A stretch of DNA of 64,000 bases, taken from Escherichia phage EcS1. Below the pieces are notes generated by a model. That model was given only the letters and a program-made list of their open reading frames with translations. It made no database searches and was not told the DNA's origin. Of this stretch, positions 1 to 61,506 are shown piece by piece. Every line of letters starts with the position of its first letter. Position 1 is the first letter of the stretch. The stretch is from sequence record NC_055721.1; one strand, 5' to 3'. The position numbers were made by a program, and so were the translations under genes.

Positions 1-2169
1 TTATGAGCCCAGATTCAATAGTTTAGCAAAGTCAGTAGCTTGTTCAGCAGTCATACCATACCGACCTTTCATGTATTCAGATAGAACTAAGTTTTCTTTT
101 TCAAACTTCTTAATTCGATCTTCTTGTTTTTTAGAAGCCGAGTTAGTAAGTTTATCAAAAATATTTTTAGCTAGTTTATGCTCATTAATCACTTCAGTAT
201 AAGTGTTCTTAAATGACATAGCATAAGTCTTTAATTTAACTGCAGCTTTAGAAGTAACACCGCTTTCATTAAAGAATTTGTCCATTGCAGCCAGACAACT
301 ATGTTTGTTAATATGACGAGAATAAAAAGAATACGTTCCGGTCTCTACTGTATATTCATCGTAGTCAACAGTATCGATAAGTTCGATAAAGTAATCACTC
401 ATACGTTTGTATAATGATTTTAACTCAGTATTCTTGTAAGCGTATTTCCACACTGCAGGACGAAGAACAATGAACTCTTTAACATCATCGATCATTTCTG
501 CACAAGTTTTAATATTATGGAACGCCATACCATAGATACTTTTACCATCTGAATCATGGAAATCATCACGGTTCTGGAAGATGGTCCATTCATCTTTGAG
601 GTCATAAACATCTTTAGCCGATAAGAACAAATCACTAGCAATAAAGTGTCCTTCAGCATTTTTAACGAGACGGTAGCCGTTAGGTGATTTAGGACGAACA
701 GTACTTGGTCCTTTACTAGCTTCTTCTTTAACGGTAATGCCTTGAGCTTCTGTGAGTTCAGACATCTTGTAAGTTTCTACGATATCTTCACCAAAGAATG
801 TTTTAATTAAAGCAAGAGTTTTCATCTCAAGCTCTGAGTTCGCATCAAACATAACGATATCATCGAATGTTTTAAGCTCAGGATAGCCCTTAGGCAATTT
901 ATCTTCACGAGTTAATTTAGCTAAACCACGAATCGTATCAAGCTTCTTATTGCTCTTAACGTCGTTTAGAAGAACAACCAACTTCTCTGTAGAATAGCCG
1001 TACAGTCGATTCGCTGAAGCCGTTTTAGAGTTAGAAGTCCATTTAATGCGCTTACGTGTAGGTGTAGCACACATTTCATAAGCACAACCAACTTCAGCAA
1101 AGTGTTTAGGAATTTCATGCATCTGCTGAAGCTGACGAATATTATAACCTTTGACACCAAATGTAGTAACACGATGCTGTAAGAAGTTTCGTGCATCATA
1201 AGACAAACCATCAATCATACGATGAATCTTACGGGCATTAGTTTCAGCCGCGAAATCTTTCAAGTCTTCTTCTAAAACTTTCTTACCAAGTTCATTAATA
1301 CGTTTACGAACGTTTGCTGCAGTTTGTTCATCAAATGAAAGTTCTTCACGTGATGGAGTGATATCAAGTTCACCAAGTTTAAAACGAATAAACGTGATAT
1401 CATTTTTAATTTGAAGCCATGACTTAGGCAAATCAGGACATTCATTCAATGGGTAAACAATATTACCATACAGAGCATAGATGCCTTTATTTTCAAAACC
1501 TGTATAGTTGTAGGACATACTATAAGTGTCTTCGAATTCAGGGAAGAATTCAATTTCTGTTTTAGTTCCAGTGAGTTCTACTTTACCAGCGAAAGGACGA
1601 AGAACATAACGAATTTCTTTCAACCAAGCTGAAAGGTCATTCATTTTAACTGGGACAGTAATTTCAATACCAGTTTCATCACCTTCTTTCATTTCTTCAA
1701 CGAATGTAGGTTTCAGAACAGGTTCACCACCATCAAGCATTGCGTTGAAACCACGAATCATTCCATCATGATAAGACACAACAGTAAAGGTTTCGGTATA
1801 ACTGAATGGTGATTTAGAACCAAGACCCAACGCACCAATGAAGTCATTACTATTAGACTTAGTTGAAGCAAAATAAGTAGTGTACAGATTCAGAACGTCA
1901 TCTTCACTTAGCCCAGGACCAAAGTCACGAATAACAAATCGTGGGTCTAGCTGTGAAGGAGCCTTAATCGTAAATGGTTTAGTTTGACCATTCAAGAAAT
2001 GAGCATCAATACAGTTACAAGATAATTCGCGAACGATAGCACGAATCTTATTCTTGTAGAGGTTAGAAGACAAGATTTTAAATGCCTTCGCTGAAGTTGC
2101 GATACTAAACTTTTTAGATGCTTGGTTACCTGAACCCAGGATTACTTCATCGTCTGTAACTAATTTCAT
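1..2169 (-). CDS. rIIA: rIIA protein (membrane-associated, GHKL-ATPase-like N-terminus)
   Basis: 722 aa; N-terminus matches my recollection of T4 rIIA (KAFKILSS.LY.NKIRAVVRE...DPRFV.RDFGPG...GLGSKSPFSY); complete ORF, TAA stop at 1-3. Confidence 0.9.
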   Translation of the reverse strand: MKLVTDDEVILGSGNQASKKFSIATSAKAFKILSSNLYKNKIRAIVRELSCNCIDAHFLNGQTKPFTIKAPSQLDPRFVIRDFGPGLSEDDVLNLYTTYFASTKSNSNDFIGALGLGSKSPFSYTETFTVVSYHDGMIRGFNAMLDGGEPVLKPTFVEEMKEGDETGIEITVPVKMNDLSAWLKEIRYVLRPFAGKVELTGTKTEIEFFPEFEDTYSMSYNYTGFENKGIYALYGNIVYPLNECPDLPKSWLQIKNDITFIRFKLGELDITPSREELSFDEQTAANVRKRINELGKKVLEEDLKDFAAETNARKIHRMIDGLSYDARNFLQHRVTTFGVKGYNIRQLQQMHEIPKHFAEVGCAYEMCATPTRKRIKWTSNSKTASANRLYGYSTEKLVVLLNDVKSNKKLDTIRGLAKLTREDKLPKGYPELKTFDDIVMFDANSELEMKTLALIKTFFGEDIVETYKMSELTEAQGITVKEEASKGPSTVRPKSPNGYRLVKNAEGHFIASDLFLSAKDVYDLKDEWTIFQNRDDFHDSDGKSIYGMAFHNIKTCAEMIDDVKEFIVLRPAVWKYAYKNTELKSLYKRMSDYFIELIDTVDYDEYTVETGTYSFYSRHINKHSCLAAMDKFFNESGVTSKAAVKLKTYAMSFKNTYTEVINEHKLAKNIFDKLTNSASKKQEDRIKKFEKENLVLSEYMKGRYGMTAEQATDFAKLLNLGS

Positions 2170-7096: not shown

Positions 7097-7780
7097 TTAG
7101 CGAGTTTTAGGAAGAGATAAAGGATCGGCATTACTTTCATCAGGGACTTCATCAAGTCCAAGTGCATACCGTTGAGCATATTTTAACATCAAAATATCTT
7201 TAGCACAATCGTGAATCGAATCATGCATAACGAAACCATTTAACGTGTCTGCTGGCAATGGAGTAGTAGACAAACCACGGACCATCGAATAACATTCAAT
7301 TGCTGTACGGATATCACGTTGATTCCAGAACTTACATGGTTCAGCAGTGAAGGTATCAATTTCTTCTTCAGCTACACCTGCATCACGTTGGATTTCACGG
7401 ATATGGTCAGTAAAGATTGGGAAGTCAAATGACATACCACGGCACCAACCTTGTGAATTCCATGCATCGACGCCTTGTTCTTTTAAGTACATCAAGGCTT
7501 CAGTGATGCCATCTACAATAGTCATATCATTTTCAGATGGGGCCAAGTTAGCTCGTGCTTCTGCTGACTGCCCTTTCCACCATTTGATGGTTCCTTTAGA
7601 GAACGTACGATGACCTTTCTGTGCAGCAAGATTAAATTTAATACGCTTACCACGAGCCACAAGTTCATCAAATGTTTCTACGACAGTCGGATCGGCATTA
7701 AAGGCAATTAACGCAAGGTCAATTACTGCTGCATTAGGTGTTGACCCGAAGGTCTCATAGTCAATTGTAAAATCAATCAT
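7097..7780 (-). CDS. dexA: exonuclease A (DnaQ-like 3'-5' exonuclease)
   Basis: 227 aa, same length and position as T4 DexA; N-terminal DxE-type exonuclease motif (IDFTIDYETFG). Confidence 0.8.
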   Translation of the reverse strand: MIDFTIDYETFGSTPNAAVIDLALIAFNADPTVVETFDELVARGKRIKFNLAAQKGHRTFSKGTIKWWKGQSAEARANLAPSENDMTIVDGITEALMYLKEQGVDAWNSQGWCRGMSFDFPIFTDHIREIQRDAGVAEEEIDTFTAEPCKFWNQRDIRTAIECYSMVRGLSTTPLPADTLNGFVMHDSIHDCAKDILMLKYAQRYALGLDEVPDESNADPLSLPKTR

Positions 7781-8012
7781 CGGTTGCTACCTTAAATTGT
7801 AAAATCAAATCAGCCACATGTTCACTGATACAAATATCAGGAGCTAGACCTGTGAACCAAATGATTGAGTCAGTTTTAGCTTTAATTGCTTCAAGTTTGT
7901 CAATTAATTCCCAGCCTATTCGCTGGGCAGTATCGTTATCTTTTGCTGAACGATGTTGGACTTTAATTGAATTAAGCAAATCAAGAAAATGTTCTTCGTG
8001 TAATCTGTACAT
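7773..8012 (-). CDS. hypothetical protein (dexA.1 position)
   Basis: 79-aa ORF between dda and dexA. Confidence 0.4.
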   Translation of the reverse strand: MYRLHEEHFLDLLNSIKVQHRSAKDNDTAQRIGWELIDKLEAIKAKTDSIIWFTGLAPDICISEHVADLILQFKVATDD

Positions 8013-8019
8013 ATTTCAC

Positions 8020-9345
8020 CTATACAAAATAAACATCATGACGAGCACGGGTAGCTGAAACGTATGCTAATTGCTTAGCTAAATCAATGTCAGCCAATGT
8101 GATGCACGGAGTATAGATGAATGTATTGTCTACGCTTATACCCTGTGACTTATGAATCGTACTACAAGGAAGAGCTTTAACTTTCAAGAAGGTTCGCTTA
8201 GCGTCCCAGAAGTCAGCCCAATGTGGTCGTCTTCCTGCTGATTTTAACTCACGATATGTTGTAGCAACTTTAGCCAAGAACATATCAAATTTCTGTTTCT
8301 CGTTTGCATCAGCAAGGACTTTAATAGTTTCACGTTGATAATCGTCATCTTCGTCTACAGTTTCGACTTCAAGATGCCAATATGAAATCATTTGCTTAAC
8401 AGAAACATCTCGTGCCTTCAAGAAAGTAGAAGTGAGTTTACAATCAAGAATACGAATCATTTGTCCATTATTGAAGATAATCTCATTGAACTTCTTACCA
8501 TCAAATTCGAGTTGCTTCATGTATGGCTCTTGCATAACTAGCACTTCGCCAACGATAAATGGGTTCTCTGTTTCATAAAGCTTACGACGAATAATACCAT
8601 TTAACTTATCGACTGACTTATTAGTATAAGCAAGCATACGAGTTTCAAATAAGTCTTCAGGGCTTTTAACCACATCAAAATACTTCATCATGTATTGTTG
8701 GAGAGGTTTATCACCACCAAAACCATGGAATCCATGACCATCTTCAATACATTCACGGAACCAACCACCAGTACGAATTTCAGTAGCGACTTTAATGATA
8801 GGTCCATTAGAACGTTTCACTTCAGTCAATGTGACTTGTTTGAAACGTGAGTCACTGAAGAAAGGTGACTTGGATGGTAGACTATCACCAGGAGAAACAG
8901 GACGAAGTTGTTCTTCATCACCAATACCAATGACAGTACAATGAGATGGAATAGTGTTCATCAAAATCTTGAACAGAGCGCCATCATACATCGACCCTTC
9001 ATCACAAAACAACACGCGACATTTAGCTAAGTCAGGCATTTCTTTCTGTTCGAAGATGCTTTCAGCTTCGTAAGTTGTTGGTGAAATTTTCAAGACACTA
9101 TGAATCGTAGCAGCTTCATGCCCAGACAATTTAGATAATACTTTTTTAGCCTGGTGAGTAGGTGCAGCCAACATTATCCCTAGCTCACCATTACGAACTA
9201 GATGTTCTAAAATGAATTTAGTCATGGTTGTTTTACCAGTCCCTGCGGGACCGTTAATCATGACATGGAATTTCTTTGTTTTAATAGCTTCAATTACTAC
9301 ATCAAATGCAGATTTTTGACCTACCGTTAAGTCTTCAAATTTCAT
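8020..9345 (-). CDS. dda: Dda DNA helicase (SF1B)
   Basis: 441 aa; Walker A INGPAGTGKTT and overall strong match to my recollection of T4 Dda (LAAPTH.AKK.LSKLSG.EA.TIHS, KALP.ST.HK.QG.SVD, TPCI). Confidence 0.9.
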   Translation of the reverse strand: MKFEDLTVGQKSAFDVVIEAIKTKKFHVMINGPAGTGKTTMTKFILEHLVRNGELGIMLAAPTHQAKKVLSKLSGHEAATIHSVLKISPTTYEAESIFEQKEMPDLAKCRVLFCDEGSMYDGALFKILMNTIPSHCTVIGIGDEEQLRPVSPGDSLPSKSPFFSDSRFKQVTLTEVKRSNGPIIKVATEIRTGGWFRECIEDGHGFHGFGGDKPLQQYMMKYFDVVKSPEDLFETRMLAYTNKSVDKLNGIIRRKLYETENPFIVGEVLVMQEPYMKQLEFDGKKFNEIIFNNGQMIRILDCKLTSTFLKARDVSVKQMISYWHLEVETVDEDDDYQRETIKVLADANEKQKFDMFLAKVATTYRELKSAGRRPHWADFWDAKRTFLKVKALPCSTIHKSQGISVDNTFIYTPCITLADIDLAKQLAYVSATRARHDVYFV

Positions 9346-37356: not shown

Positions 37357-37583
37357 TGTAAGTTCTTAGCGCAATCGTATGCGTCGTCAAATCCACCAAA
37401 AGCATCAACTGAAATATAATTGCCAGTTGTCGTAGCTTCATATACCCAGAAGGCTTCAAAGTCTTCTTCAATTAGATAATCAAGGCCAGCAGGAGATGTC
37501 CCTTCAACTAACACTCGGTCGTCATCAAGTTCTTTAACAAATAGACCAGCTAGTTGCAAGTCCATGATTTCTTGCTTAGTCAT
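37353..37583 (-). CDS. hypothetical acidic protein
   Basis: 76-aa ORF; ATG embedded in the AATGAC junction shared with the upstream stop. Confidence 0.4.
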   Translation of the reverse strand: MTKQEIMDLQLAGLFVKELDDDRVLVEGTSPAGLDYLIEEDFEAFWVYEATTTGNYISVDAFGGFDDAYDCAKNLQ

Positions 37584-37824
37584 TCAAATATTCCTCAAGT
37601 TCTTCAAGAGTTCGACCATTATCCCAAGCTTCTTCAGTTGTTACATGAGTATACTTGATTTTAGAATCAATTAAATAAATTCTAATTTCTGGCCAAAATC
37701 TTTGAACTTCTTTGATAACATTGTTTAAGAAAACAGATTGAGAAATCTTTTGAGAACGATCGATGCTTCCGTCTTCGCATTTAGCTGTTAAAATGGCTGA
37801 TACACCTTCAGGTAATTCAATCAT
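37576..37824 (-). CDS. hypothetical protein
   Basis: 82-aa ORF ending ...ELEEYLND. Confidence 0.4.
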   Translation of the reverse strand: MIELPEGVSAILTAKCEDGSIDRSQKISQSVFLNNVIKEVQRFWPEIRIYLIDSKIKYTHVTTEEAWDNGRTLEELEEYLND

Positions 37825-38084
37825 TCAAATATTCCTCAAGTTCTGTTCTAGTTAACCCTTCAGTCCACATATATTCTAGTGAGTACTTAGCTACTTCATT
37901 AGTCCCTACTGGGAAATATTTGAAGTGATCATTAAGGTCACTTCAAATAATTATTGGATAGAACTCTTCTGGCTTGTGAAAGAGATTCTGCATCAGTGTA
38001 GGCTCTGCACGTCTTTATAGTCGAATGCCATCCACTTGATTTAGAATGCATAACAATGATAGTTATGCCGTTTTCATGTCGCAT
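37817..38084 (-). pseudogene. frameshifted paralog remnant of the 82-aa ORF
   Basis: 48-aa ORF (37938-38084, MRHENGITII...) followed in another frame by an open segment ending ...TELEEYLND, mirroring the neighbour's C-terminus; 24-bp junction repeat at 37580-37603 and 37821-37844. Confidence 0.3.
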
Positions 38085-45673: not shown

Positions 45674-45961
45674 TCATTGTGTAGCTCGTTTATATGCTTC
45701 GTGAGCAGCTACTGCAACTTTGTCGTCTTGACATAATTTCGTTTCTGGTTGTTTAGCCAGATAATGAAACGCTAGTGACTTAAGCTTGATTATTGAAAAT
45801 GCTACATTAGTCTGGGTAGTAGATAATAAATTAATGAAATCAGCATGTTCGCCATTATCTTCGGCTTCTTGCAAGAACATTTTGCAAACAACACTGTCTA
45901 ACTCTTTAAAAAGAGCATTCATTTCATCAGAGCGCTTGAGATTAGTATCAAATGGATTCAT
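45674..45961 (-). CDS. hypothetical protein
   Basis: 95-aa ORF. Confidence 0.4.
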   Translation of the reverse strand: MNPFDTNLKRSDEMNALFKELDSVVCKMFLQEAEDNGEHADFINLLSTTQTNVAFSIIKLKSLAFHYLAKQPETKLCQDDKVAVAAHEAYKRATQ

Positions 45962-46485
45962 TACTTCACCTCTGGAAATACTTGAGCGATACGAACCTTG
46001 ATAGCTTCATCAAGAATAGTTGTCCACGCATTATTGATGCGATTACGAATCAGTTCATCAATTTTATTTTCGTTTTGACTGATGACATGCAGAATATGAT
46101 GCTCAAGCTTTTTATTAGCTCGTTGGGCTTGGTCAACAAGATAATCTTGAATTGCATTAGATGCAATCTTTTCAGCTTCTTCGCGAATCTTAAAATTAGC
46201 AATATCAGAAGCTTGAATACCTTTCCAACCTTGGTCAGACAGTAGTTTATTCATTTGCTTATTGACTTCATCTTTAACAGAAGGAATATCAACAGGGTGT
46301 GCCTTAATTTCTTCTTTAATTAAGGTAGACACACGGTTATTTGTGTCTTTCAAAATCAAGTCTTTAGTGATGTTCTGAATAACAGAACGACGAAGGTTAA
46401 CTTGAGCTTCAGTTCCTTCAGGGAACAATTGGCGTACTGCATGTGTATCAAGAGACATACTAATCATTTTAATCCTCGAAATCAA
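45961..46485 (-). CDS. hypothetical protein
   Basis: 174-aa ORF; caller start is TTG, ATG at 46465-46467 is likelier; its start lies in copy 1 of the 126-bp tandem repeat. Confidence 0.4.
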   Translation of the reverse strand: MISRIKMISMSLDTHAVRQLFPEGTEAQVNLRRSVIQNITKDLILKDTNNRVSTLIKEEIKAHPVDIPSVKDEVNKQMNKLLSDQGWKGIQASDIANFKIREEAEKIASNAIQDYLVDQAQRANKKLEHHILHVISQNENKIDELIRNRINNAWTTILDEAIKVRIAQVFPEVK

Positions 46486-46716
46486 TTTTAATATCAGGGC
46501 GACCCATTTTACTCATAATAAGTTTAAGCAAATCACCTTCGTTAAAAGATGAACTACTACAACACGAAGCATGAGGTGTGAGATCGTCATCATTTTAATC
46601 CTCGAAATCAATTTTAATATCAGGGCGACCCATTTTACTCATAATAAGTTTAAGCAAATCACCTTCGTTAAAAGATGAACTACTACAACACGAAGCATGA
46701 GGTGTGAGATCGTCAT
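46465..46716. repeat. perfect 126-bp tandem duplication (2 copies)
   Basis: 46465-46590 and 46591-46716 are identical base for base; the unit spans the 3' end of ORF 46595-46852 and the start of ORF 45961-46485. Confidence 0.9.
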
Positions 46717-46852
46717 ATTCTACGCCATCAATTATAATGTTGTATCCTTCGGCATCGTTACTACAGCCTAATTCGCATTCACTATAATCATAAAGTTTCT
46801 GTACTTTAATATTCATCATTGTCCTCAAAAGCAGAAGGTTTAGCAATACCAA
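46595..46852 (-). CDS. hypothetical Cys-containing protein
   Basis: 85-aa ORF; C-terminal about 40 codons lie in copy 2 of the tandem repeat. Confidence 0.4.
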   Translation of the reverse strand: MVLLNLLLLRTMMNIKVQKLYDYSECELGCSNDAEGYNIIIDGVEYDDLTPHASCCSSSSFNEGDLLKLIMSKMGRPDIKIDFED

Positions 46853-47219
46853 TCAGACACACTATACCGCCTACAATAGATATAGACCATAATATAACAC
46901 CACCAAAGAACCAGATAAGATTCTCCATAGGAGTTTGCTTAATGTCCATAGGGCGTAAATCAAATACGACCTTTTCACCAACCTTCAATTGAGAATAAGT
47001 AGAAGGTTTTAGGCGCAAATCGAAATAAACATTATCTTCTGTTTTAAAAACACCAATAAATTCCGTACTCGCATATCGCCCTGTTCCTTGTCCTGAATAG
47101 AGTTGAGTTGTTTCTACAGTATATGACTTCTCGGACATGTAATCATTGTTATGACTAAATGTAAACATTACGCTGATAATGATACATAAAGCAATTAAGA
47201 ACTTAGAGCGAGTTGTCAT
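46806..47219 (-). CDS. membrane protein
   Basis: 137 aa; N- and C-terminal hydrophobic segments. Confidence 0.4.
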   Translation of the reverse strand: MTTRSKFLIALCIIISVMFTFSHNNDYMSEKSYTVETTQLYSGQGTGRYASTEFIGVFKTEDNVYFDLRLKPSTYSQLKVGEKVVFDLRPMDIKQTPMENLIWFFGGVILWSISIVGGIVCLIGIAKPSAFEDNDEY

Positions 47220-47452
47220 TTTAATTCCTTCACAAATTTATGGTGACATTCACGACATTTCATTTTAAGGACTGGAGTTGACCAGTCCACTAATTGTACT
47301 TGCATAGTACCACACTTTGGGCATGGTGTTACTTGCTTACAGGCTGCTTCACGCCTGTCTACCATTGCAATAGTAGCACCCCAGTCGATTTCAAATACTT
47401 CTTCATCGCCTAAAGCTTCTAACTTATCGATTAAATTCTGTGTCTTAGGCAA
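47216..47452 (-). CDS. zinc-ribbon protein
   Basis: 78 aa; CPKCG...CRECHH. Confidence 0.4.
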   Translation of the reverse strand: MPKTQNLIDKLEALGDEEVFEIDWGATIAMVDRREAACKQVTPCPKCGTMQVQLVDWSTPVLKMKCRECHHKFVKELK

Positions 47453-52992: not shown

Positions 52993-53012
52993 TTATTTCT
53001 CCAAGTAAGTCT

Positions 53013-53057
53013 GTTTTGTTTCGATGTAGCTATAATAACATGTTTGAAGCAGATGTA
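53013..53057. repeat. 45-bp conserved upstream element, copy A (MotA-box-like TGCTTCA)
   Basis: Differs at one position from copy B at 53509-53553; lies upstream of ORF 52014-52992. Confidence 0.7.
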
Positions 53058-53062
53058 CACAC

Positions 53063-53491
53063 TTATTTGCAAAGATTCCACTGAATCAAAGTATATTTTT
53101 CGTTGTAACCAGCTTTTTCCATTTGAGCAGCAAATTCTTCAAAGTTTTTAGAAGATTCAAAGAAATTCACAGCCAATTTAGTAGGCTTAGCAACACGTTT
53201 TTCAGATTTAACTTCAACTGCTTTAACAACTTCAACCACTGGAGCTGATTCAATGATATCACATGAACCATCTGAATAACGAGCCCATACTTCGTTACCA
53301 ACTTTAAACATTGCTGCTTTACGACCGTTAGGCATTTCTACCATTTTACCTTTCAACTTAGTTACTTCAGTAATAACTTTGTCACCATACTCTTCAAAAC
53401 GATCTTTAGCCATTACGCCATCAGTAGAAGCAATCATTGGGAAGTTGAAATGGTAATAAGCAAAATTACGAATTGCATAATAAGTTTTCAT
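53063..53491 (-). CDS. hypothetical protein
   Basis: Likely start MKTYYAIRN at 53489-53491. Confidence 0.4.
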   Translation of the reverse strand: MKTYYAIRNFAYYHFNFPMIASTDGVMAKDRFEEYGDKVITEVTKLKGKMVEMPNGRKAAMFKVGNEVWARYSDGSCDIIESAPVVEVVKAVEVKSEKRVAKPTKLAVNFFESSKNFEEFAAQMEKAGYNEKYTLIQWNLCK

Positions 53492-53508: not shown

Positions 53509-53553
53509 TGTTTTGTTTCGATGCAGCTATAATAACATGTTTGAAGCAGATGT
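53509..53553. repeat. 45-bp conserved upstream element, copy B
   Basis: tgttttgtttcgatgcagctataataacatgtttgaagcagatgt; upstream of ORF 53063-53491. Confidence 0.7.
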
Positions 53554-53569
53554 GTACTTTTATTTTTGC

Positions 53570-59231: not shown

Positions 59232-59576
59232 TTAGTCCCACATCATCTGGGCGACGCCTTTTTCGTACTTACGAGCAGCAATTTCGTCCCAGTTGTAGTC
59301 GGTACCATTTTTCAACGAACTTTTTATTTCCATTTTATGCATATTACGAGGAATAGGCATTGAATATTGAGACCAACGAAGAGTTTTCCAAAAGGAATCA
59401 CGATGGCGTTCTTTCTGAAGCTTCTCAGCTTGAGCAGGCATTTCTAAATTATCTTCAATGTAACGTTTAATGCAATAAGAATCTTTACGTACATGATAGA
59501 AGATATTTGTGTTCTGGTCATTCCACTTTGAAGATGTAGTGCAATGCCAGCCTTTACGACGGATAGTTCTTGACAT
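59232..59576 (-). CDS. hypothetical protein
   Basis: 114-aa ORF; AGAGG Shine-Dalgarno. Confidence 0.4.
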   Translation of the reverse strand: MSRTIRRKGWHCTTSSKWNDQNTNIFYHVRKDSYCIKRYIEDNLEMPAQAEKLQKERHRDSFWKTLRWSQYSMPIPRNMHKMEIKSSLKNGTDYNWDEIAARKYEKGVAQMMWD

Positions 59577-59634
59577 ATTAACCTCTGAGTTTACATTAAA
59601 GTAGCTCAGTGGTAATAGAATCCTGATTTAAACA

Positions 59635-59757
59635 TTAGCTGTTCCTTACGATTTCTACAACTATCATAATCATTGCTAGAAAACCCATAGCAGCATAATC
59701 ACTTGTACCAAGTGCAATAAGCGATAGGATAAGCATAGCAATGGAATAGATAATCAT
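59635..59757 (-). CDS. small hydrophobic peptide (40 aa)
   Basis: Unlisted ORF MIIYSIAMLILSLIALGTSDYAAMGFLAMIMIVVEIVRNS with AGAGG upstream. Confidence 0.3.
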   Translation of the reverse strand: MIIYSIAMLILSLIALGTSDYAAMGFLAMIMIVVEIVRNS

Positions 59758-59758
59758 A

Positions 59759-59929
59759 TTAACCTCTGTCAATTATTTCATAGATTTCATTTAGCGAATC
59801 ATTACCGTCTCGAGCTATAATAAGTTCTTCAAGACTGATTTCTTTTTCACCACAACCTAACTGTACAAAATGTTCTTTTAAGAGAGAACGTAAAGCTTCT
59901 AGAGCTTCTTGTTTAGTTTGTACTGTCAT
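59759..59929 (-). CDS. small hypothetical protein (56 aa)
   Basis: Unlisted ORF MTVQTKQEALEALRSLLKEHF...; stop abuts the next ATG (TAATATG); start overlaps the tk 3' end. Confidence 0.3.
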   Translation of the reverse strand: MTVQTKQEALEALRSLLKEHFVQLGCGEKEISLEELIIARDGNDSLNEIYEIIDRG

Positions 59930-60506
59930 ACATACCTACTTTATCACACCAATGTTTTCTGCACAATGAAACATACTTATCATTACCACCCATTACTACT
60001 TGGGCTCCATCAATAACAGCATTACCTTCTTCATCGAGACGAGCTACCATTGTTGCTTTACGTCCGCAATGACAGACACCTTTAAGTTCTACTAACTTAT
60101 CGGCTACGGCTAACAATGCTTTAGAACCTTCGAACAGATCGCCACGGAAGTCAGTTCTGAGCCCGTAAGCCATCACAGGGACATCATATAAATCAACAAT
60201 ACGACACAGTTGGAACACCTGTTCAGCCATTAAGAACTGTGCTTCATCAATCAGAACACAATGAATATCTCGTTGAGCTTGAGCCCATTTAAAGAATTCA
60301 AGGATGTCCATATCACGTGTGATAATGTTAGCTTCTTGACGAAGACCAATGCGAGAAACAACTTCAGAGGCCGAATCACGATCATCTAAAGCAGGTTTCA
60401 TTACTAGCGTACCCATACCACGTTCTTTGTAGTTATGAGCTACCGAAAGAAGCGCAGTACTTTTACCAGCGTTCATTGATGCAAAATTAAAATAAAGTTG
60501 AGCCAT
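59913..60506 (-). CDS. tk: thymidine kinase
   Basis: 197 aa; P-loop SMNAGKST, Walker B VLIDEAQF, C-terminal zinc-binding Cys pairs; as T4 Tk. Confidence 0.9.
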   Translation of the reverse strand: MAQLYFNFASMNAGKSTALLSVAHNYKERGMGTLVMKPALDDRDSASEVVSRIGLRQEANIITRDMDILEFFKWAQAQRDIHCVLIDEAQFLMAEQVFQLCRIVDLYDVPVMAYGLRTDFRGDLFEGSKALLAVADKLVELKGVCHCGRKATMVARLDEEGNAVIDGAQVVMGGNDKYVSLCRKHWCDKVGMYDSTN

Positions 60507-60718
60507 TATTTAGGTTCCTTTGATTCAATCCATTCAGGGGTAGTTTGAAAGAACCCTTCACCAGCATGGTTTTTGCAGGTCTTATTGGAACAATACAACC
60601 ACCAGTCCCATTCGCTATAAGGTAGTTGATTAAACATACCGTCATTACATAAAGTGAATACAATAGGCCAATGACAATCTTTACAACGACATTTATCTTT
60701 TGTATGAGCTTGTGGCAT
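60506..60718 (-). CDS. Cys-rich small protein
   Basis: 70 aa; CRCKDC...C...C..C. Confidence 0.4.
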   Translation of the reverse strand: MPQAHTKDKCRCKDCHWPIVFTLCNDGMFNQLPYSEWDWWLYCSNKTCKNHAGEGFFQTTPEWIESKEPK

Positions 60719-60918
60719 TATAGTTTACCTACTTCACATCCAGCTGGAGGAGTCCAAAAATTCTCTTGGACAAAGTCAATTAAAGCCTGACGTTGAAAAT
60801 CAGCTTCAGTTTCGCGAGTTCGCCATTCCATATCTGAAATTTCTGAATCGCAATTAGCTTCTTCTGCTGCACGAGCTGCATCTTCGAAACGCTTTAATAC
60901 TGCAAAGAATTCTTTCAT
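60718..60918 (-). CDS. hypothetical protein
   Basis: 66-aa ORF. Confidence 0.35.
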   Translation of the reverse strand: MKEFFAVLKRFEDAARAAEEANCDSEISDMEWRTRETEADFQRQALIDFVQENFWTPPAGCEVGKL

Positions 60919-61093
60919 TCTGATATACTCTCAAGAAATTGGTTTAATGCGAATTGAGCATTATTTTTGTATTCAAGGGCTTTATCATACCCATCCATAT
61001 CACCTTGTGAAGACTCATAACAAAGGTCTCCTTCGGCTTCTACAACATCAGCGACTAAATCAAGAATAACTCGAACATGTTCTTTAGTAATCA

Positions 61094-61291
61094 TTATACA
61101 CCTATTACGTCAAGAAGCTCTTTATACACAGAAGCTAATTCATCAGCGGATTCTTTAACTAATTGACTAGGCCCTTCCATTGATTGATACTGATGGTCTT
61201 TAGCTGCATCAATTAGTCGATCAATAACTTCACAAATCATAGCATGTTCTTCATCAGATCGTGTGCTCATATCCATTGGACCCTTAAACAA
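61094..61291 (-). CDS. hypothetical protein
   Basis: 65-aa ORF (TTG start per caller). Confidence 0.3.
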   Translation of the reverse strand: MFKGPMDMSTRSDEEHAMICEVIDRLIDAAKDHQYQSMEGPSQLVKESADELASVYKELLDVIGV

Positions 61292-61506
61292 AATTCTTCA
61301 ATATGTTGTGTTCGTTTCTTTTTATCAATATAATTATATTCGATAAAAGTGCCAAGATATTCTTTTTCTTGAACTTTAGAAATAATAGGACAACGAGTTT
61401 TGCGGACTTCTTGCCATTGTCTAATTATTGTTGCTTTATTTTTTGGATCAAATGGGTGTGGATAGTGTATTTTCATTAGGAGCCCAATCAACAATAACCA
61501 CGTCAA
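61267..61506 (-). CDS. hypothetical protein
   Basis: 79-aa ORF. Confidence 0.35.
   Translation of the reverse strand: MTWLLLIGLLMKIHYPHPFDPKNKATIIRQWQEVRKTRCPIISKVQEKEYLGTFIEYNYIDKKKRTQHIEEFCLRVQWI

Follow-up and report, generated by a model that had tools for sequence, protein, structure and literature searches.

Two described systems are close to the tandem repeat considered here. The first comprises the tandem duplications and amplifications of phage T4, including the dmd-tifA amplification and the rII and gene 16-18 duplications, which like the repeat in phage EcS1 are head-to-tail repeats in a T4-type genome (PMC9391042, citing Kumagai 1993, Mosig 1987 and Wu 1991). These T4 events are of kilobase scale, often multi-copy and selected, and the junctions of mapped T4 tandem amplifications lie at microhomologies of 'typically 6-10 bp' (PMC9391042). 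The EcS1 repeat, in contrast, has a unit of 126 bp, is present in two copies, shows 2 nt of homology at its boundaries and brings no evident benefit. The second system arises during assembly. Leftover end overlaps of k-mer length, 127 bp with SPAdes, are documented in phage assemblies and are routinely trimmed (PMC7372960, PMC12007190). Such a terminal overlap resembles the EcS1 repeat in being base-perfect, two-copy, free of spacer, approximately as long as a k-mer and part of a circularly assembling phage genome; it differs in its length (127 versus 126 bp) and in lying at the ends of a record rather than inside it.

EcS1 is a T4-type myovirus of the genus Kagamiyamavirus with a genome of 175,437 bp, and the window, by which we mean the whole stretch of 64,000 nucleotides analysed here, is the first 64 kb of its sequence record (NC_055721.1). 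The genome was reportedly published by Saad et al. in 2018 (Arch Virol 163:3207). The nearest genomes in the phage collection, of which EcS1 itself is not a member, are those of Winklervirus X20, CHI14, CBH8, Kc304 and others, at ~77-81% nucleotide identity.

A perfect tandem repeat across a gene junction

By direct string comparison, positions 46465-46590 of the window are identical, base for base, to positions 46591-46716, each segment being 126 nt in length. The relation S[k]=S[k+126] holds for k = 46463 to 46590, that is, for 128 consecutive positions, and the whole tract at 46463-46716 measures 254 nt, made up of 2 x 126 nt and a 2-nt 'AT' extension. Tandem Repeats Finder reported the tract with a period of 126, 2.0 copies, 100% matches, 0% indels and a score of 508, and it was the sole tandem repeat reported in the 64-kb window. 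The perfect 126-bp identity of the two segments, to which the earlier note had drawn attention, is thus borne out by both methods. The copies are exactly two and lie head to tail, with no spacer, mismatches or indels. The joint between them, at 46575-46604 on the plus strand, reads GGTGTGAGATCGTCAT on its left side and CATTTTAATCCTCG on its right. Other 20-mers that are repeated in the window form just two short runs, near 37580/37821 and 53028/53525, and an exact repeat of 126 nt is therefore far beyond chance. The boundary homology of the repeat, 2 nt ('AT'), is indistinguishable from chance: for a blunt join at the base composition of the window, the probability of at least 2 nt is 0.175, and that of at least 6 nt is 0.002.

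The tract lies among four consecutive annotated EcS1 genes, gp087, gp088, gp089 and gp090, which were recognised by exact protein look-ups. Genes gp088, gp087 and their neighbours are all on the minus strand, and the features of the locus are the following.

46463..46716, no strand assigned: whole tandem-repeat tract (Tandem Repeats Finder and string comparison)
46591..46716, minus strand: first-transcribed copy, carrying the true 3' end of gp088 (sequence, translation and X20/CHI14 alignment)
46465..46590, minus strand: second-transcribed copy, carrying an orphan gp088 3' fragment and the working gp087 start (sequence, translation and alignment)
46513..46593, minus strand: 26-codon by-product ORF, MMTISHLMLRVVVVHLLTKVICLNLL and stop (frame translations)
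45961..46467, minus strand: gp087 (BBC78135.1), 168 aa, intact (100% identical to EcS1 KNT65_gp087; PHROG; X20 homologue)
46595..46816, minus strand: gp088 (BBC78136.1), 73 aa, small Cys-containing protein, intact (exact EcS1 annotated protein; PHROG; X20 homologue)
46806..47219, minus strand: gp089, 137-aa predicted membrane protein (phrog_2547), between gp088 and gp090
47216-47452, minus strand: gp090, 78 aa, nrdC.2-like (exact protein look-up)

On the minus strand, each unit opens with 2 nt of a codon, after which come the final 39 codons of gp088 (DDLTPHASCCSSSSFNEGDLLKLIMSKMGRPDIKIDFED), the stop codon TAA, a 1-nt spacer and the ATG of gp087, whose ribosome-binding site, GAGGA, sits within the 3' end of gp088. 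In the first-transcribed copy, the 39 gp088 codons run from 46714 to 46598 and the TAA from 46597 to 46595, followed by one spacer nucleotide; the gp087 signals found here, GAGGA at 46603-46599 and ATG at 46593-46591, are orphans. In the second-transcribed copy it is the gp088 fragment, at 46588-46469, that is orphaned, its 39 codons and TAA standing in the gp088 frame behind the gp088 stop, and the working gp087 signals are the ribosome-binding site at 46477-46473 and the ATG at 46467-46465. The earlier note had described a unit containing the end and stop codon of one ORF and the start codon of the next. This content holds, as the gp088/gp087 junction with the last 39 codons, stop and start codon, but the ORF limits given with it were wrong: by homology and the depositors' annotation, the genes are shorter than the TTG-started ORFs 46595-46852 and 45961-46485. 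The orphan start and orphan 3' coding segment that it had described were also found: following the direction of transcription, a ribosome-binding site and ATG close the first copy and the gp088 fragment opens the second.

Neither gp087 nor gp088 is broken. Both are full length and have end-to-end PHROG profile matches, gp088 to phrog_8901 (over 1-73 of 1-74/75) and gp087 to phrog_3806 (over 1-165/166). The X20 homologue of gp088, gp083, aligns over the full length, and X20 gp082 maps to 46467-45964 of the window as a single HSP comprising residues 1-168 of its 171. Any tandem duplication across a gene junction leaves each gene intact once, however, and gene integrity is thus uninformative as to whether a duplication is real or selected. 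The four cysteines of gp088 (C15, C19, C44 and C45) are all conserved in the X20 homologue, and the protein may be a small metal-binding protein; no Pfam domain was found in it, and no function is given to it by PHROGs or Pfam.

The by-product ORF arises where the copied ribosome-binding site and ATG of gp087 open the +1 frame of the orphan gp088 fragment. The copy preserves GAGGA-N5-ATG in full ahead of the 26 codons, whose product would be hydrophobic. The ORF is absent from the protein collection and carries no depositor annotation, gp087 and gp088 being numbered consecutively. By-products of this kind arise automatically, because every junction-spanning tandem duplication yields them. Within the unit, promoter-like sites were no commoner than in shuffled sequence and no terminators were found; the fold of the unit RNA was unremarkable (z = -1.05), and the unit had no Rfam match.

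Relatives and surrounding sequence

X20 and CHI14 each have one copy of the junction, and their alignment with EcS1 contains a clean gap of 126 columns, the assignment of which to one or the other of the two identical copies is arbitrary. The gp083/gp082 junction of X20 and CHI14 resembles that of EcS1: the two genes are the same, they stand in the same order and their translational signals overlap (GAGGATTAA-A(A)-ATG). Nucleotide identity across the junction is ~77%, and the proteins are 68% and 76% identical. The relatives differ in having a single copy, a spacer of 2 nt as opposed to 1 nt in EcS1, and no gp089 gene. Comparison with related phages, a check that had been proposed along with the original observation, accordingly gives a single copy in both genomes. 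This shows the single copy to be the ancestral state; the comparison cannot tell a second copy carried by the phage from one that exists in the record alone.

Searches for a second sequence of the EcS1 type covered several collections. Exact scans of viral contigs found neither the novel joint nor the left flank. A degenerate pattern of the junction hit 56 loci in metagenome contigs, 0 of which were homologous, a scan of GTDB genome contigs found nothing, and complete E. coli genomes gave no match. No contig encoding gp087, gp088 or gp089 turned up in exact-protein look-ups, which allowed for alternative starts. A homology search with gp087 returned EcS1 itself at 100% and a next best match at 76%. 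The four local proteins all form singleton clusters, and a collection of 15 billion proteins contained EcS1's own proteins and no other close relative. With no second EcS1-like sequence in the collections searched, comparison cannot decide whether the repeat is real.

The gene next to the repeated junction, gp089, is absent from X20 and CHI14. Its edge, ~90 nt from the repeat, is by comparison of these genomes an older indel or module-exchange boundary. In Karamvirus CC31 and PG7, a membrane protein is annotated next to nrdC.2 (nrdC.7 in CC31), and the sole match above 80% nucleotide identity to these phages is at 47209-47300.

Elsewhere in the window, a direct repeat of 57 nt with 91% identity occurs at 53012-53068 and 53509-53565, at a distance of 497 nt. 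Its minus-strand (coding) sequence contains ...CATCTGCTTCAAACATGTTATTATAGCTACATCG..., in which a TGCTTCA motif resembling the T4 MotA box lies upstream of a -10-like element, and the pair may, on this resemblance, represent a repeated middle-promoter cassette. An exact direct repeat of ~24 nt is found at 37580-37603 and 37821-37844, with a spacing of 241 nt; apart from the 126-bp tract and the 53-kb pair, it is the only exact repeat of at least 20 nt in the window. Four phage records reach 99% identity or higher over some short part of ~59500-60650, and the genome is otherwise at most 84% identical to the whole collection. The match of at least 99% does not fall within 60650-61500; a highly conserved short element could account for it, as could a segment near tk that was exchanged recently. 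The adjoining ~550 nt at 60718-61267 contain no ORF of 70 aa or longer. A megablast search with 60650-61500, which covers most of this stretch, matched no phage record, and 60718-61267 gave no tRNA or Rfam hit. In X20, a homing-endonuclease gene (7337-7993) lies just downstream of dexA (in the compared stretch 7337-8673). The dexA gene of the window, at 7100-7780, is ~890 nt closer to the start of the record than X20 dexA, which suggests that EcS1 lacks the X20 homing endonuclease.

Rotation of the record and origin of the second copy

Bases 1-3 of the window are TTA, the rIIA stop codon, and seven Winklervirus genomes (CHI14, CBH8, X20, Kc304, Gravdalen, Vettismorki and Virsaitis27; ten records) align with the window from base 1 of both. 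In X20, the rIIA coding sequence is 1..2169. Judged by these starting points, the EcS1 record is deliberately rotated to the T4 convention, beginning at the rIIA stop codon, and the original contig ends must therefore be internal somewhere.

We lean, on balance, towards the view that the second copy is an untrimmed contig-end overlap and is not in the phage. The DNA of T4-type phages is permuted, and EcS1 would assemble as a pseudo-circular contig in which the first and last bases repeat each other. The depositors would have cut and re-joined this contig so that the record begins at the rIIA stop codon. If the overlap was left in, the old ends would become an internal, blunt, base-perfect 126-bp tandem duplication. 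We infer that the old contig ends lay at the repeat site and overlapped by 126 nt; unlike the documented leftovers, the EcS1 repeat would then be internal rather than terminal because the record was rotated. An end overlap predicts what is seen in several respects. There are exactly two perfect head-to-tail copies, which form the only tandem repeat of the 64 kb, and the rotated record puts old contig ends inside. The boundary homology of 2 nt is at the chance level of a blunt join. The position of the repeat is arbitrary, in a coding region that carries no signal and has one copy in the relatives.

The length of the unit can be read in two ways. The number 126 equals k-1 at k = 127, the overlap left by graphs of the Velvet or ABySS type. 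SPAdes leaves 127, which counts against an end overlap, and a simple SPAdes origin at k = 127 was rejected because the period is 126. In 2017-18, the pipelines of the same laboratory were 454 GS Junior with Newbler 2.6 or PacBio RSII with SMRT Analysis. Neither Newbler nor SMRT Analysis gives an overlap of k-mer size, a further point against an end overlap, although with overlap-layout assemblers the leftover overlap can have any length. Elsewhere, too, the assembly is clean: 34 of the 35 conserved X20 proteins map essentially end to end in single HSPs, ModA being partial at 56% identity, and no frameshifts, which we sought as a sign of sloppy assembly, were found in the 35 conserved genes. 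Two other rotated records from the same laboratory, RP12 and RP31, have no end overlap at the record ends. This result says little, because these records, both of which begin 29 nt before the end of ORF001, were apparently re-oriented too and different bioinformaticians were involved. Finally, an end overlap has to be weighed against the fact that tandem duplications do occur in T4-type phages.

The chief alternative is a real duplication in the sequenced EcS1 clone, very recent and selectively neutral, and we give this a substantial chance, though one short of even. Sister genomes, or genomes replicating together, might have undergone illegitimate recombination or template switching, with 46465 joined to 46716 at 'AT', and the duplication would merely place 126 extra bp between gp088 and gp087, with no gene lost. 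T4 readily forms tandem duplications and amplifications at short homologies (PMC9391042, citing Kumagai 1993 and Wu 1991), and the region is a plastic one, with the gp089 indel relative to Winklervirus ~90 nt away. Both flanking genes are full length, so there would be no counter-selection on the duplication. Several of the points that weigh against an overlap favour a real duplication: the length is not that of the usual 127-bp SPAdes artefact, the 454 and PacBio platforms of the laboratory would resolve a true 252-bp repeat, and the remainder of the assembly is clean.

A neutral duplication fits the details of the repeat less comfortably. Like the duplicated segments of T4, the EcS1 segment is single-copy in relatives, but its 2 nt of homology fall short of the 6-10 bp typical of T4. 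The latter result lowers the case for a typical T4 microhomology event, and not that for a real duplication by another route. There are just two copies, with zero divergence, and no independent genome carries the repeat, the EcS1 proteins forming singleton clusters. Recombination would be expected to remove such a repeat quickly. In T4, about one percent of perfect 126-bp tandem repeats should disappear with each infection cycle, and a real, unselected copy must therefore be very young and short-lived. The rotation of the record, moreover, offers an easy non-biological route to the same structure. The earlier note had proposed either a very recent event or an assembly artefact, and given the single-copy relatives and the lack of a functional signal in the unit, exactly these two readings survive.

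We think it very improbable that the duplication is real and has been kept by selection, either through altered expression of gp087 or through a new micro-protein. On this account, the stop of gp088 and the start of gp087, tightly coupled across a 1-nt spacer, are moved apart by the 126 nt, which uncouples the translation of gp087 from that of gp088. The intact copied GAGGA-N5-ATG does open the 26-codon ORF, and gp087 retains its own ribosome-binding site. These by-products are nonetheless automatic in any junction-spanning duplication, and the ORF lacks depositor annotation. The arrangement is not conserved, the relatives having one copy and a 2-nt spacer, no structure or promoter signal was found, and zero divergence leaves no time for selection to show. 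If this account were true, the locus would show a T4-type phage caught in the act of creating an ORF de novo by duplicating a gene junction.

Least probable of all, and close to negligible, is that the repeat is a programmed element: a regulatory cassette, for example, or iterons, or the target-site duplication left as a mobile-element footprint. This reading can point to just a direct repeat in a hyperplastic early-gene region, there is nothing between the copies that could be an inserted element, and the 64-kb window holds no further copies of the unit. The X20/CHI14 alignment effectively refutes it, the unit being ordinary coding sequence that runs collinear with the one-copy junction of these phages.

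Meaning for EcS1 and related phages

An assembly artefact and a neutral duplication are both well-known kinds of event, and nothing at this locus is new biology. If the second copy is an untrimmed contig-end overlap, the EcS1 reference is 126 bp too long and its correct length is 175,311 bp; EcS1 is the only member of Kagamiyamavirus found in the collections searched. When a pseudo-circular contig is rotated, an end overlap that was left untrimmed can be concealed within the record and mimic a fresh duplication there. If the repeat is instead real, it would be a routine, short-lived small duplication in a recombination-prone T4-type phage, with no effect on the flanking genes.
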